Source: Treponema sp. (GTDB lineage: Bacteria > Spirochaetota > Spirochaetia > Treponematales > Treponemataceae). Taken from it: DNA of 64,000 nt. The DNA is taken from the NCBI GenBank assembly GCA_045616325.1, contig JAZLGN010000039.1:11596-75595 (forward strand), in the 5' to 3' direction. This document shows, one piece after another, positions 13,320 to 27,089 of the stretch (positions are counted from its first letter, which is position 1; each line of letters starts with the position of its first letter). A program made the translations under genes and the position numbers. The notes beneath the pieces are model-generated. The model was not told the DNA's origin. It was given only the letters and a program-made list of their open reading frames with translations, and searched no databases.

Positions 13320-13441
13320 ATTCGATGCCAGGCCTGCTTGATTCATTTGCAGGCTTTTGTTGTTATAAGGCCCTCCTTGTAACGGCGCTGTTCTTTGAAA
13401 GATTTGAACGGCTGATTCTTTCGGCTGTTTTTTTCTTATAT

Positions 13442-13518
13442 TTGGGAGAAGTGCAAGTCCGTTGGACAAAGGCATTTCGCTAGGACAAGCCCTTTTTCGG
13501 GGCGAATCCACACCAATT
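13442..13518 (+). promoter_or_regulatory. Putative L1-binding autoregulatory leader of rplK
   Basis: TTGGGAG...CCACACCAA closing stem with internal hairpins just upstream of the rplK SD; L1 sites commonly precede rplK. Confidence 0.35.
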
Positions 13519-13534
13519 CTTAAGGAGCTATACT

Positions 13535-13966
13535 ATGGCTACAAAAAAGGTACAGACTTACATCAAGTTACAGTGCCCAGCAGGCGCTGCTACTCCTGCA
13601 CCTCCAATTGGACCAGCTCTCGGACCTCATGGTGTTCCTGCACCAAAATTCGTTCAGGAATTCAATGACCGCACAAAGAGCATGGAAAAGGGACTCATCA
13701 TCCCGGTTGTTATCACTGTCTACACAGACAAGTCTTTCACATTCATCCTCAAGACACCACCTGCACCTGTTCTCATCAAGAAAGCAGCAGGCATTCAGAA
13801 GGGTGCCGGAAATCCTCTCCGCGACAAGGTTGGAAAGATTTCACAGAAGGCTCTCGAAGACATCGCAAAGCAGAAGATGCCAGATCTTAATGCTAACGAT
13901 CTCGAAGCAGCTAAAAAAATCATCGCTGGTACTGCACGCAGTATGGGCGTAGAGGTGGAGGCTTAA
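13535..13966 (+). CDS. rplK: 50S ribosomal protein L11
   Basis: [31 protein letters not shown]. Confidence 0.99.
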
Positions 13967-24716: not shown

Positions 24717-25187
24717 ATGGGAAGACATAAGAAATCAGTTAACCGTCCGGTTATGCCAGATGAAAGATATAACAGCGTAGTAATTTCTAAGTTCGTATGC
24801 CGCATGATGCTCGACGGAAAGAAAGCTATCTGCCAGAGAGTTATCTATGAAGCTCTCGACAAGCTCAAGGCAAAGACAGACAAGGACCCACTTGAAGTAT
24901 TCCTCAAGGCCCTTGACAATGTTAAGCCAATGGTAGAAGTTAAGTCTCGTCGTGTTGGTGGTGCAACATACCAGGTACCTATCGAAATCCGTGAAACACG
25001 CCGTGAAGCTCTCGGAATGAGATGGATGATCAATGCAGCTCGTGCTCGCAATGGTCACGGTATGGCAGAGACTCTTGCTGCAGAAATTTTTGATGCATTC
25101 AACAACACAGGTTCTGCATACAAGAAGAAGGAAGATACACACAAGATGGCAGAAGCAAACAAGGCTTTTGCACACTACCGCTGGTAG
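24717..25187 (+). CDS. rpsG: 30S ribosomal protein S7
   Basis: EVKSRRVGGATYQVP, HKMAEANKAFAHYRW. Confidence 0.99.
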   Translation: MGRHKKSVNRPVMPDERYNSVVISKFVCRMMLDGKKAICQRVIYEALDKLKAKTDKDPLEVFLKALDNVKPMVEVKSRRVGGATYQVPIEIRETRREALGMRWMINAARARNGHGMAETLAAEIFDAFNNTGSAYKKKEDTHKMAEANKAFAHYRW

Positions 25188-25206
25188 AAGAATCTTTCTT
25201 CAATAT

Positions 25207-25240
25207 AACGTCCTTCAGTTCTGGAGGGCGTTTTTTTATT
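25207..25240 (+). terminator. Rho-independent terminator after rpsG
   Basis: AACGTCCTTC...GGAGGGCGTT hairpin followed by a T-run. Confidence 0.85.
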
Positions 25241-25340
25241 CTTCTTGAATCAAATTGTTTACTATTAAATGTAATGTTTTCATACAAATTATAGTTAACT
25301 GCAGGCAAGGTATTTTCTTTCATGAAATGGCATTTCCCTC

Positions 25341-25369
25341 TTGAACAAAGTTTCAATAAGTAGTATAAA
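25341..25369 (+). promoter_or_regulatory. Sigma70 promoter upstream of the long tuf leader
   Basis: TTGAAC-17-TATAAA; predicted TSS near 25376. Confidence 0.7.
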
Positions 25370-25376
25370 TTATCAA

Positions 25377-25705
25377 CTGTATTACGCTCATATTGGGCGT
25401 GTTGTGTCTACACACAGGGTTGTTTGAGAAGTCAGACGGACGGCCTAATGACTGTCCGGTAAGAATCGTAAAGTTAATCGAAAGATTTTCAGATTGTTAC
25501 ACCCGAATACAGGAAGGATGCAGTTTGCATTCCTTGAAAAAAACGAGATGTTCGGTGCTTCTGACGTGGTTTACCTTCGGTAATCACAGGCTCCAGGATG
25601 CCAGACCGGTTGTCTCGCGCAGATGATGTTAGGTGGTATCGGCCAACTGCTTCGAATAGATGAAACAGAACATGGTTAGTTGTCCGTTCAATCTAGAATC
25701 GTCTC
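25377..25705 (+). ncRNA. Putative large structured RNA (tuf leader or independent ncRNA), family unknown
   Basis: Nested stems found by eye, including a long-range closing helix 25377-25383/25506-25512 and a 12-of-13-bp helix 25544-25556/25605-25617, several G-U pairs and a GAAA tetraloop; no credible ORF. Confidence 0.5.
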
Positions 25706-25836
25706 ATTAGTTTGGAAAAGTGTGATTGCGAAAGTATTGTTGCCTTTTAGGTGCGATATTTTCTGGCTTAAAGTGCAACACATAAAAATAATTTTTAATA
25801 TGCCGCAGAATTTAACTGTAAGGCAAGGAGAAAATC

Positions 25837-27024
25837 ATGGCAAAGGAAGAGTTCAACAGAACAAAACCTCACATGAACGTTGGTACTATCGGTCACGTTG
25901 ACCATGGTAAGACAACACTTTCAGCAGCTATCACTTCATACTGTGCAAAGAAGTATGGTGATAAGGTTCTCAAGTACGACGAAATCGATAACGCTCCAGA
26001 AGAAAAGGAACGTGGTATCACAATCAACTCTCGTCACCTTGAATATCAGTCAGACAAGAGACACTATGCTCACATCGACTGTCCAGGACATGCTGACTAC
26101 ATCAAGAACATGATTACTGGTGCTGCTCAGATGGATGGTTCTATCCTCGTTGTTTCTGCTCCAGACTCAGTTATGCCACAGACAAAGGAACACCTTCTTC
26201 TTGCTCGCCAGGTAGGTGTACCAAAGATCATCGTATTCCTTAACAAGGTTGACCTCGTTGACGATCCAGACATGCTCATGCTCGTTGTTGATGATGTTAC
26301 AGAAACAATCAAGAAGTACGGATTCTCAGAAGAAACACCAATCATCCAGGGTTCAGCATTCAAGGCTCTTGCTGACGGTGCAACTGCAGATGATACAAAG
26401 TGCATCGAAGAACTCCTTGCTGCAATGGATACATGGTTCGATGATCCAGTTCGCGATGATCAGAAGCCATTCCTTATGCCAATCGAAGACATCTTCACAA
26501 TCACAGGTCGTGGTACAGTAGTTACTGGACGTATCGAACGTGGTGTTGTACACATGGGTGATGCAGTACAGATCGTTGGTATCCGCCCAACACAGGATAC
26601 AACAGTTACTGGTATCGAAATGTTCAACAAGACACTTAACGAAGGTATGGCTGGTGATAACGCTGGTATCCTCCTCCGTGGTGTTGAAAAGAAGGATGTA
26701 ATCCGTGGTCAGGTTCTTGCTGCTCCAAAGTCAATCAATCCACACACAAAGTTCGTTGCTCAGATCTACGTTCTTTCAGAAAAGGAAGGTGGACGCAACA
26801 AGCCATTCCGCACAGGTTACCGCCCACAGTTCTACTTCAGAACAACAGATATCACTGGTGAAGTTCAGCTCGCTGATGCATCAGCAATGGTTATGCCTGG
26901 TGACAACGTAGAAATCACAGGTGAACTTATTCATCCAATCGCTATGGACGAAGGTCTTAAGCTTGCTATCCGTGAAGGCGGTCGTACAATCGCTTCTGGT
27001 CAGGTTACAAAGATTATCGAATAG
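25837..27024 (+). CDS. tuf: Elongation factor Tu
   Basis: [39 protein letters not shown]. Confidence 0.99.
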
Positions 27025-27089
27025 TTTTTGATGGAATGACGCAGGCGGGTTTAGTTCTGCTTGTGTCATTCATCTGGGAGAATAAAAAG

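Follow-up and report, generated by a model that had tools for sequence, protein, structure and literature searches.

A transcribed, strongly conserved RNA leader with a BoxA-like element precedes tuf and the S10-spc-alpha genes in Treponema

In this gut Treponema, the ~460 bases before the EF-Tu gene (tuf) form a genuine RNA leader, transcribed, folded, and strongly conserved, which probably controls the amount of translation machinery made. We analyzed it within a window of 64,000 nucleotides (contig JAZLGN010000039.1 of assembly GCA_045616325.1), and all coordinates refer to that window. Comparison among species shows that the leader folds into three modules, domain A, core B, and domain C, with purifying selection on their structure. 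Core B is the ancient module; domains A and C are later additions.

The leader lies between rpsG, which ends at 25187, and the tuf ATG at 25837, and the untranslated stretch from promoter to ATG measures ~460 nt. The order rpsG-[520-714 nt]-tuf is kept genus-wide, as is, in the alignment, a promoter block TTGa-N17-TATAaa (24-50 species), with promoter and spacing both kept in ~50. From the promoter we infer a start site at ~25375-25377. The features of the locus are as follows.

25207-25238, + strand: intrinsic terminator of rpsL-rpsG (terminator scan), which sets the leader apart from the upstream operon
25341-25369, + strand: sigma-70-type promoter, TTGAAC (25341-25346), 17-nt spacer, TATAAA (25364-25369), kept across species
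25384-25416, + strand: two promoter-proximal hairpins of variable sequence, ACGCTCA/TGGGCGT and TGTGT/ACACA
25417-25504, + strand: domain A, a multi-helix junction (RNAalifold, 45 species)
25417-19 / 25502-04, + strand: domain A P1, GGG/CCC (consensus fold)
25419-25431, + strand: BoxA-like element GUUGUUUGAGAAG, genus consensus GGGUUCUUUGAGA, unpaired in the RNAalifold consensus
25437-43 / 25452-58, + strand: domain A P2 hairpin (consensus fold)
25459-67 / 25492-500, + strand: domain A P3, well supported (consensus fold)
25476-79 / 25484-87, + strand: domain A P4 (consensus fold)
25467-75 and 25486-92, + strand: nearly invariant internal-loop strands of domain A, CGUAAAGUU and UUUUCAG (alignment)
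25514-25535, + strand: hairpin P5, in which 5/5 pairs covary
25536-25588, + strand: linker with a conserved GGGUUUCUGAC-like block (here GGUGCUUCUGAC) and a variable hairpin at 25566-25587
25589-25644, + strand: core B, an irregular hairpin with covariation and the signature CCA-N-ACC ... GAU-N-AGGUGG
within core B, + strand: P1 GGCU/GGCC
within core B, + strand: P2 UGCC/GGUA, then a two-base AG bulge
within core B, + strand: P2b ACC/GGU
within core B, + strand: P3 GUUGUCU/AGAUGAU
25647-25668, + strand: hairpin B2, CUGCUUC/GAAACAG, with conserved loop letters GAA...AUG
25669-25720, + strand: variable linker with semi-conserved blocks UGUCCGUU (25681-88) and AAUCGUCUC (25696-25704)
25721-25782, + strand: domain C, a three-way junction (45 aligned species)
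25721-29 / 25775-82, + strand: domain C closing helix, UGUGA.UGC/GCA.ACACA
25730-36 / 25757-63, + strand: domain C covarying arm, GAAAGUA.../...UAUUUUC
25766-74, + strand: domain C mini-hairpin, GCU-UAA-AGU
25783-25801, + strand: A/U-rich single-stranded linker (from the sequence)
25802-25830, + strand: covarying hairpin (25802-25824) and free Shine-Dalgarno AAGGAG (25825-25830)

Transcription starts at the conserved promoter, ~460 nt before tuf, and the resulting RNA carries both leader and tuf. In a T. succinifaciens-like relative (locus L127), zero-mismatch RNA contigs from three true metatranscriptomes (X33, X35, X38) run into tuf; their 5′ ends lie 15-17 nt past the predicted start, or ~37 nt in one run, and none of the contigs covers the spacer from the rpsG terminator to the promoter. 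A T. denticola-like genus shows the same pattern, with a contig 5′ end ~15 nt past the predicted start at locus L149. For the window itself, four runs of undeclared library type and low depth (X7, X9, X11, X24) give a weak hint. An earlier sequence-only reading of the window had placed the promoter here; it is indeed the conserved one, the RNA contig starts agree with it, and the rpsG terminator, the TTGAAC-17-TATAAA hexamers and the tuf ATG all lie at the expected positions.

Read depth bears on whether the leader is an RNA in its own right. Depth in X35 was 114.6 over the leader, 128.4 over the 14.5-kb tuf-operon contig, and 52.3 over rpsG, while in isolate transcriptomes of another genus (X51) the leader contig reached 3989, the upstream gene 842, and tuf ~10000, or ~2.5 times the leader. 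The depth of tuf was above that of the leader in two runs, and leader depth was never above tuf. Because leader depth is at or below tuf depth, this is a co-transcribed 5′ leader of a ribosomal-protein operon and not a discrete, more abundant noncoding RNA; the contigs also continue into tuf, although as contig-level data they could let minor processed species go unnoticed. The ORF map and RNA contigs together give what is expected of a ribosomal-protein leader, a co-transcribed 5′UTR of a ribosomal-protein operon, and they show neither the separate transcript nor the defined 3′ end of stand-alone large noncoding RNAs of the OLE, GOLLD, ROOL, or raiA type. A terminator scan of the leader found none before tuf and none conserved.

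The decisive evidence for the predicted fold is comparative. Single-sequence folding energy was better than that of shuffles, as the sequence-only reading anticipated, but only modestly and similarly on both strands (z -2.6 on the + strand, -2.9 on the - strand), so it decides nothing. In domain A, 92.7% of cells are paired vs 36-45% with partners slid, there are 272 double-change cells vs 83 in shuffles, and compensatory changes occur in 24/26 pairs (RNAalifold, 45 species). The corresponding paired fractions are 97.6% vs 31-65% for core B plus the next hairpin and 94.2% vs 29-53% for domain C. Covariation among homologues was thus found for domain A, core B, hairpin B2, and domain C, and it supports the proposal of an RNA structure under selection ahead of the tuf-S10-spc-alpha genes.

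The fold that emerges differs in its global arrangement from the one drawn by eye in the sequence-only reading. The local hairpins quoted there (ACGCTCA/TGGGCGT, TGTGT/ACACA, CGGACGG/CTGTCCG, AATC-GAAA-GATT, AAGGATGC/GCATTCCTT, and GTGGTTTACC-TTC-GGTAATCAC) are present in the sequence, but the nesting inside "Domain 1" and "Domain 3" closures is not conserved. The Domain 1 closing helix CTGTATT/AATACAG is not predicted in the genus consensus and, by eye, occurs in the closest relatives only. The Domain 3 closure CGAGATG-T-TCGGT/ACCGG-T-TGTCTCG (25544-25556 / 25605-25617) reaches -15.2 kcal/mol here but carries no species-specific signal, and it competes with the family-wide core-B fold. A suggested GAGATG/CGTCTC switch has the same weak support and is not conserved, and TTGAG/TTCAG, put forward as a nested helix, would cross the well-supported P3 and is possible solely as a pseudoknot. 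"Master regulator", its label for the leader, is interpretive. That reading also overlooked the BoxA-like element, the build-up of the leader from modules of different age, and, close to the ribosome-binding site, the nearly invariant three-way junction.

Other candidate pairings gave no better signal. The block AAUCGUCUC could pair with the 3′ strand of core-B P3; this complementarity exceeds that of shuffles by ~1 SD and shows no species-specific covariation. We rejected an attenuation-type switch among segments 1:2, 2:3, and 3:4, with GAGATG/CGTCTC among the pairings tried: duplex energies beat shuffles by 0.5-1 SD, and strands of one species paired no better than strands taken from different species. 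We likewise discarded a processing stalk of the rRNA kind between the leader and the tuf-rpsJ spacer, long-range pairing there being no better than shuffles.

Domain A occurs in the source genus and in several other genera of Treponemataceae. Ahead of it, other species carry one or two hairpins of unrelated sequence at the position of the 25384-25416 pair, which is where a boxB-like hairpin would stand before the BoxA-like element; the rRNA-operon leaders of the genus likewise have a hairpin before BoxA. Behind it, hairpin P5 has the apex CCGUUGG in most species and GCAGUUUGC in the window, and it is missing from some species.

The BoxA-like strand, unpaired in the fold (GUUGUUUGAGA in the window, GUUCUUUGAGA in the genus consensus), resembles the BoxA of the genome's own rrn leader (UGCUCUUUGACAG / GCUCUUUGACA). 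BoxA of the genus reads GCUGUUUGACA in the rrn leader and UGCUCUUUGAAAA / GCUCUUUGAAA in the 16S-23S spacer, with a core of UNUUUGA across the family, and the tuf-leader strand is identical to these comparators at ~8-9/11 positions. By a rough per-site frequency estimate the short motif would match by chance at ~0.002 per leader; the degenerate 11-mer occurs 36 times in the genome vs ~21 expected, also a rough estimate and not above chance. The element sits early, ~45 nt past the inferred start and after one or two hairpins, in a single-stranded position. Among the 45 species aligned for the genus it is nearly invariant, and T. denticola-like and termite-type leaders have it too. It is altered to GUUCUAUGAGA in one genus and is missing from the T. 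pallidum-like leader and from locus L152. Since the T. pallidum-like leader and some other lineages keep core B without any BoxA-like element, BoxA cannot be the ancestral function. The source genome encodes NusB, NusG, and Rho. Upstream of rplK, both in the window and in close relatives, there is a second arrangement of hairpin, BoxA-like element, and terminator.

Core B is the oldest module, and its distribution ties it to tuf throughout Treponemataceae, including T. pallidum-like and T. denticola-like genomes. A covariance model of core B (R1) matched 22/25 genomes of the genus, plus 26 genomes from 10 other Treponemataceae genera, counting the genera that gave a match, and each of these genomes has a single match. 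The best 30 matches all lie ~190-260 nt before the tuf ATG, whether or not rpsG precedes them. Core B also occurs in at least four other families of class Spirochaetia, and its covariation was seen on 41 sequences from several families; two of the eight weak R1 matches outside Treponemataceae are true rpsG-tuf spacers, and the other six, one of them inside rpsG, were dismissed as false. Hairpin B2 has compensatory changes in 7/8 pairs, with 3-21 double-change sequences per pair, and its conserved AUG opens no conserved ORF by eye. Within core B, CCA-N-ACC could pair with AGGUGG in either of two registers. A possible CsrA site, the GGA in CAGGAUG before core B, is not kept within the genus and was set aside.

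Domain C was detected only in the source genus. Its UUCUGGCUUAAAGUGCA-N-CACAU segment is nearly invariant, and a 23-nt stretch hardly varies across the 45 aligned species, in which the arm shows 14-19 double changes in three pairs. The linker that follows may serve for cleavage by an RNase or belong to a weak internal promoter. At 25773-25801 there is a weak GTGCAA-17-TAATAT, whose -10-like TAATAT is not kept in other species, and a promoter scan called nothing in the linker. The hairpin at 25802-25824 has compensatory changes such as GCCGGAU/AUCCGGC and GUCGGC/GCCGAC, and the tuf Shine-Dalgarno is unpaired in the consensus fold. A strong hairpin stands 3′ of tuf as well (z -6.5).

The leader does not match a catalogued RNA class, which bears out the sequence-only reading. 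Rfam 15 gave no match to 25341-25836 at either the gathering score or E ≤ 10; only terminator-like noise appeared, at the rpsG 3′ end. The gap does not hide a degenerate fusA: with an EF-G query, tblastn at a threshold as loose as E ≤ 10 returned nothing there. Its best match was a full-length EF-G on contig C27, and EF-G-like sequences also turned up on C67 and C50. A hidden small gene was also rejected: when 45 leaders were translated in six frames, the peptides had nothing in common but the translated invariant block, which fell in differing frames. As for rRNA mimicry by core B or any other block, a covariance-model search of a complete rRNA operon of the genus, 16S and 23S included, returned only matches at E ≥ 1.8, and blastn-short of the leader against the operon, a sequence-level comparison, found only chance-level words. 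Each domain is single copy in the source genome, and a near-match on contig C56 looks like chance, so we rejected extra copies or a regulon of the leader.

Compared with rRNA operon antitermination (boxB-boxA-boxC; NusB-S10, NusA, NusG, SuhB, S4), the tuf leader shares the order promoter, hairpin, single-stranded U-rich BoxA-like element, a sequence of that element near those of the genus and genome rrn operons, and a long transcript to read through afterwards. Unlike rrn leaders, it heads a protein-coding operon, its BoxA sits inside a multi-helix junction and is followed by ~400 nt more of conserved structure, it lacks the purine-rich AGGGAAGGAAAG block found after rrn BoxA in the family, and some lineages keep its core without BoxA. 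The Nus complex also chaperones the folding of large RNAs (PMC10931766). On mRNAs, BoxA is found in the E. coli suhB 5′UTR and, putatively, upstream of rpsJ/nusB in gamma-proteobacteria, including positions before rpsJ or before the first gene of the rpsJ-containing operon (Baniulyte et al. 2017, PMC5725501). Like these, the tuf-leader BoxA stands ahead of the NusE (S10) operon, and Nus-factor autoregulation would be possible. The mRNA elements of that study lie within 50 nt of a start codon and block translation, whereas this one precedes tuf by ~410 nt and rpsJ by ~1.7 kb, a distance that makes steric repression of translation unlikely.

The S10 operon leader of E. coli is under autogenous control by L4, through NusA-dependent attenuation and translational repression. 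The Treponema leader is similarly a long structured 5′UTR of the operon for S10, L3, and L4, but it has no sequence or structure homology to its E. coli counterpart and no attenuator hairpin with a U-tract, is ~2.5 times longer, and has tuf as its first gene. Ribosomal-protein feedback is the expected logic for such leaders (PMC10931766). The S10 r-leader of Firmicutes, as named by Eckert & Weinberg 2020 (PMC7247131), likewise stands before the S10 operon as a candidate ribosomal-protein leader, in a phylum outside the Proteobacteria. We rejected homology to it, as R1 matched nothing in seven Firmicutes genomes (a model search); with the Rfam search at the gathering score and E ≤ 10, this leaves no homology to described r-leaders. 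The Firmicutes leader is located between tuf and rpsJ, not before tuf. In having >400 nt, many covarying helices, and invariant junctions, the leader is also like the ornate RNAs OLE, GOLLD, ROOL, raiA, and HEARO, none of which matches it in Rfam. Those RNAs are largely stand-alone transcripts or part of mobile elements, whereas the tuf leader is co-transcribed and restricted to one bacterial family, with core B in at least four others.

Our preferred explanation, which we hold at about even confidence, is a cis-acting 5′ leader of the tuf-rpsJ(S10)-spc-alpha superoperon that combines a NusB-S10 loading site with protein-binding feedback modules. The unpaired BoxA-like strand in the 5′ junction of domain A would be caught by NusB-S10 on leaving RNA polymerase and, with NusG and NusA, would yield a Rho-resistant, processive elongation complex able to cross the long untranslated leader and the ~15-kb operon. 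Because S10 (NusE) is encoded just after tuf, this step could put operon output under feedback. One or more operon products, either a ribosomal protein (such as L4, S10, or L3) or EF-Tu, would bind core B and domain C and thereby tune transcript elongation, stability, or tuf translation; the invariant bulges and junctions that these two modules have between covarying stems are typical of protein-binding sites. The Shine-Dalgarno-adjoining hairpin and the A/U-rich linker would determine where a processed tuf mRNA begins and how stable it is. The leader contains no conserved attenuator terminator and no conserved Shine-Dalgarno-sequestering helix, so its regulatory output is invisible in the sequence. 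Against a need for antitermination, the G-rich, C-poor leader (24.6% G, 17.4% C) is a poor Rho substrate anyway.

That same composition fits a passive leader, whose structure would shield the 5′ region from Rho and RNases and provide processing sites and a 5′ stabilizing hairpin for the highly abundant tuf mRNA, with no specific effector acting as a sensor. The free Shine-Dalgarno directly after a stable hairpin, the linker at 25783-25801, the strong hairpin after tuf, and the ~2.5-fold tuf excess in X51, which fits processing or differential decay, all agree with it. We nonetheless think it rather improbable, as it leaves unexplained 23 consecutive near-invariant unpaired or junction nucleotides in 45 species and the family-wide CCA-N-ACC/AGGUGG invariance; such invariance beside freely covarying stems points to specific recognition. 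Recognition of a small molecule or ion, such as (p)ppGpp, GTP/GDP, Mg2+, or polyamines, by modules that alter elongation or translation would suit the aptamer-like anatomy (covarying stems that differ in length, with conserved junctions and internal loops set among them) and the competing pairings in the window. This riboswitch-like sensor seems quite unlikely, given that no known aptamer matches in Rfam even at E ≤ 10, the leader shows neither a conserved terminator nor conserved Shine-Dalgarno sequestration as an expression platform, the competing pairings lack species-specific covariation, and a ribosomal-protein operon is a context typical of protein-mediated feedback.

The size, ornateness, and selected fold of the leader, with a linker that could be a cleavage site, would also accommodate a dual function, in which all or part of it would be released by cleavage and remain as a stable trans-acting RNA for protein titration or scaffolding. 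The depths of leader vs tuf (114.6 vs 128.4 in X35, 3989 vs ~10000 in X51), the contigs continuous into tuf, the lack of extra copies or target-like complements elsewhere in the genome, and complementarity to the tuf-rpsJ spacer not above shuffles make this very unlikely. It is hardly credible that domain C acts mainly at the DNA level, as a promoter or operator close to tuf. The weak GTGCAA-17-TAATAT and the higher tuf depth in two runs would favor it, but other species do not keep the -10-like hexamer, the promoter scan called nothing at this position, X35 has similar depths over leader and operon, and the arm inside the invariant block covaries as RNA, with its 14-19 double changes in three pairs.

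A bolder form of the preferred explanation, which we consider unlikely, is that the superoperon is transcribed "in rRNA mode", with the leader platform as a ribosome-assembly sensor that sets ~30 translation genes. NusB-S10 loaded at BoxA would then stay on RNA polymerase, and the invariant junctions of core B, domain C, and the CGUAAAG/UUUUCAG loop, ~400 nt in all, would serve as a platform on which several proteins dock, sensing how much free ribosomal protein, EF-Tu, or idle 30S subunit is available. If this were true, core B would be a new RNA-protein recognition module common to all Treponemataceae, including the uncultivable syphilis spirochete.

As described in PMC3616713, the E. coli ribosomal-protein leaders are confined to Gammaproteobacteria, and the balancing of EF-Tu and ribosomal proteins in non-proteobacteria is therefore largely obscure. 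The leader adds a rare bacterial structured RNA of >400 nt to the uncatalogued classes, and its alignments and one covariance model could seed an Rfam family. It would extend the idea of a Nus-factor BoxA acting on mRNAs past the gamma-proteobacterial cases, and it records a clear evolutionary layering in which the BoxA junction and the three-way junction came later than an ancient tuf-linked hairpin. T. denticola and T. succinifaciens grow in culture, and the leader offers a conserved, experimentally approachable control region for ~30 Treponema translation genes.

The tuf leader lies in a 652-nt gap between rpsG and tuf, within a cluster of ribosomal protein and RNA polymerase genes. The closest relatives of its rpsG come from animal-gut metagenome-assembled genomes labelled Treponema or Spirochaetia. 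The genes and leader modules are as follows:

Across the window, + strand: nusG, rplK, rplA, rplJ, rplL, rpoB, rpoC, rpsL and rpsG (rplL and nusG assigned by position)
24717-25187, + strand: rpsG (ORF map)
25417-25504, + strand: domain A (RNAalifold, 45 species)
25589-25644, + strand: core B, a P1-P2-(two-base bulge)-P2b-P3 fold
25647-25668, + strand: hairpin B2, with seven of eight pairs covarying
25721-25782, + strand: domain C, a three-way junction
25802-25824, + strand: pre-SD hairpin, covarying, its 3' end adjoining a free AAGGAG
25837-27024, + strand: tuf, followed by rpsJ, rplC, rplD and the remaining S10-spc-alpha genes

The leader is conserved within the genus. A BLAST search covering 36 other genomes of the genus recovered the region in 28 of them; among 24 genomes representing other genera of the order, it recovered the region in none. 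The distance from the rpsG stop to the tuf start is 520-714 nt (24 loci), and the MAFFT alignment shows a conserved promoter, TTGa-N17-TATAaa, followed by invariant blocks that alternate with variable hairpins. Profile searches covered 78 regions upstream of tuf: in ~50 species, all four elements (promoter, domain A, core B, domain C) keep a near-constant distance to the ATG. The leaders contain no conserved ORF; the only shared "peptide" was rejected as coding, as it is the translation of an invariant nucleotide block in differing frames. Rfam 15 gave no match to the leader: at gathering thresholds, the whole window yielded three tRNAs only, and at E<=10, the sole output for 25150-25900 was terminator-like noise where rpsG ends.

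All sequence elements quoted in the sequence-only reading occur where it had placed them. As a single sequence, the leader folds just ~2.6 SD better than shuffles, and the opposite strand folds equally well. The test thus decides nothing, and comparative evidence decides whether the structure is real. The domain A fold consists of P1 (GGG/CCC), a P2 hairpin, a 9-bp P3 enclosing a P4 hairpin, and a separate P5 hairpin, with compensatory changes at 24 of 26 pairs (RNAalifold, 45 species). Paired cells make up 92.7% of the domain A alignment vs 36-45% when pairing partners are slid, and double-change cells number 272 vs 83 +/- 11 in shuffles. The loop strands flanking P4, CGUAAAGUU and UUUUCAG, are almost invariant. 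For core B (41 sequences, several families), the corresponding values are 86% vs 28-62% slid and 60 vs 24 in shuffles. In domain C, the outer helix and mini-hairpin hardly vary and the long arm covaries freely, while UUCUGGCUUAAAGUGCA-N-CACAU is nearly invariant (45 species). CCGU-containing blocks (CCGUAAAG, an apex CCGUUGG, and UAUCCGUUU) recur in many species, at 25467-25473 and 25681-25688 of the window and in the P5 loop of relatives; a single RNA-binding protein might make repeated contacts with these three blocks.

This consensus differs from the folds drawn by eye. The proposed closure of a first domain by CTGTATT/AATACAG does not appear in the predicted genus consensus and, by eye, recurs in the closest relatives only. 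The closure of a third domain, 25544-56 with 25605-17, is strong in the window (-15.2 kcal/mol) but occupies the 5' strand of core B P3, and so competes with the family-wide fold. A switch through GAGATG/CGTCTC pairing had also been suggested. We assessed it as part of a series of alternative pairings like that of trp (1:2, 2:3, 3:4): duplex energies beat those of shuffles by just 0.5-1 SD, and pairing segments within a species gives no advantage over pairing them across species. An alternative-pairing switch is possible but unproven.

The distribution of core B ties it to tuf. A core B covariance model (R1) was run over 401 genomes of the phylum. Of 25 genomes of the genus, 22 carry a single match; so do 26 genomes belonging to 10 other genera of the family (counting genera that yielded a match), among them a 1.14-Mb complete T. 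pallidum-like genome and 2.7-2.9-Mb complete T. denticola-like genomes. The 30 best matches are all on the tuf strand, ~190-260 nt before its ATG, with or without rpsG upstream. Core B thus belongs to tuf rather than to a "fusA slot", as the locus had been described. The rpsG-tuf gap holds no EF-G remnant, and fusA is located elsewhere in the genome. Outside the family, R1 matches are scattered. R1 is a short model whose E values near 0.01 are unreliable; weaker matches in four further families are true tuf leaders (L151, L152, L155 and L156), and six others were rejected as false. At one locus, L158 (G084:C13), a weak false match falls inside the S7 coding sequence of rpsG (AAACC...AUAGGUGGU, encoding ..KP.VEV.SRR.GG..). 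By eye, the same core, CCAAACC-GAUCRUC...GAUGRKAU-AGGUGG, is present in rpsG-tuf spacers of termite-gut Treponema and Spirochaetaceae genomes; R1 had no match in seven Firmicutes genomes. Domain A is found in several genera of the family, and domain C was detected in this genus only. From these differing distributions, core B is ancient and domains A and C were added later.

The leader is co-transcribed with tuf from the distal promoter, as contig starts and depths indicate. For the window itself, RNA coverage comes only from low-depth runs of unknown library type and gives a weak hint. In one of these (X9), a low-depth contig, 25347-25586, starts ~30 nt before the inferred start and represents either DNA or read-through. 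Coverage is clearer at L127, the locus of a close relative (tuf protein 90% identical), where three declared metatranscriptomes gave zero-mismatch contigs over 1261-1771, 1232-1773 and 1261-1751, with no contig cover from ~1774 to the rpsG 3' end (~2034). The -10 hexamer at 1801-1796 predicts a start at ~1790; two contigs begin 15-17 nt downstream of it and the third ~37 nt, and the contigs extend 50-80 nt into tuf. A fourth run (X29) covers the spacer too, indicating read-through or DNA in the library. In run X35, rpsG has a depth of 52.3 and the leader contig one of 114.6, compared with 128.4 for a contig of 14.5 kb from the tuf operon. In the T. denticola-like genus, an 8.7-kb feline metatranscriptome contig starts 22 nt after the -10 hexamer, and isolate transcriptome depths are 842 for the upstream gene, 3989 for the leader contig and ~10000 for tuf; in these contig-level data, a proximal start or processing may add to tuf abundance. 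Of the proposed large ncRNA or cis-regulator, the structured RNA absent from Rfam stands, but it is part of the tuf transcript and no more abundant than the mRNA.

In core B and domain C, invariant bulges and junctions are set between covarying stems, which looks like the protein-binding sites of ribosomal protein leaders. We found no rRNA mimicry in covariance-model and blastn-short searches against a complete rRNA operon of the genus, no second copy of either module in the genome, and no conserved terminator or Shine-Dalgarno-sequestering helix in the leader. Because of this anatomy and the gene context, we consider autogenous feedback by a protein more likely than a small-molecule riboswitch. 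Downstream, the tuf-rpsJ spacer (27030-27074) folds into a hairpin of very high stability (-27.9 kcal/mol, z -6.5) that lacks a U-tract. This hairpin may serve in processing or stability, or act as a partial barrier setting the ratio of EF-Tu to ribosomal proteins; no pairing between the spacer and the leader was found.

Among the unpaired stretches of domain A, the best conserved is BoxA-like, GGGUUCUUUGAGA (in the window, GUUGUUUGAGA); it follows one or two hairpins and lies ~45 nt downstream of the start site. This layout recurs in rRNA-operon leaders of the genus, as promoter, hairpin and then GCGCUGUUUGACAGGC; the genus 16S-23S spacer BoxA is UGCUCUUUGAAAAU, and the family-wide rrn BoxA core is UNUUUGA. 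The 16S gene was not found in the assembly, so its rRNA operons were apparently lost at contig breaks; contig C34 breaks off within an rRNA-operon leader whose BoxA is UGCUCUUUGACAGUUCAAGGGAAGGAAAG, the first ~100 bases of the contig (- strand) containing a hairpin, UGCUCUUUGACAG and AGGGAAGGAAAGAAG. NusB and Rho are encoded in the genome, and nusG, assigned by position, in the window. Baniulyte et al. (PMC5725501) describe putative BoxA elements in gamma-proteobacteria that precede rpsJ or the first gene of rpsJ-containing operons. According to a review (PMC10931766), NusB-S10 bound to BoxA assembles a complex that resists Rho and also acts as a chaperone for RNA folding. The tuf leader lacks the purine-rich AGGGAAGG(G/A)AA(G) block that follows BoxA by 5-10 nt in most Treponemataceae rRNA-operon leaders examined (L141-L146, L162-L170). 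The BoxA 11-mer pattern is not enriched genome-wide (36 vs ~21 expected, a rough estimate), and neither the T. pallidum-like leader nor that of another family (L152) has the element; in one genus its core carries a U-to-A change. The leader is also G-rich and C-poor, a composition disfavoured by Rho.

A similar arrangement occurs in the nusG-rplK spacer (13358-13437), where a hairpin, BoxA-like GCUGUUCUUUGAAAG and a terminator-like hairpin with a T-run precede the rplK leader. At the corresponding position, two close relatives carry UGAUAUUUGAUAAG or UGAUGUUUGAUAGA and then a hairpin. Another ribosomal protein operon thus seems to have a Nus-type antitermination arrangement. Directly upstream of rplK, 13441-13552 (GGGAGAAGUGCAAGUCCGUUGGACAAAGGC...) is conserved across the genus with no Rfam leader match, and is possibly an uncatalogued L11/L1-operon leader.

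Full-text literature searches turned up no published account of a tuf leader from Treponema or any spirochaete. Term searches did not find it in the main text of a 224-motif survey or of a paper on 20 r-leaders, and in the main text of a human-microbiome motif survey they found only the L7/L12 and L20 candidates for Treponema. Altogether, the analysis confirms a transcribed and conserved RNA, the large composite 5' leader of the tuf-ribosomal protein operon, which is not in Rfam. We class it as an operon leader of the ribosomal protein or Nus type, unusually large and modular, its mechanism being inferred.
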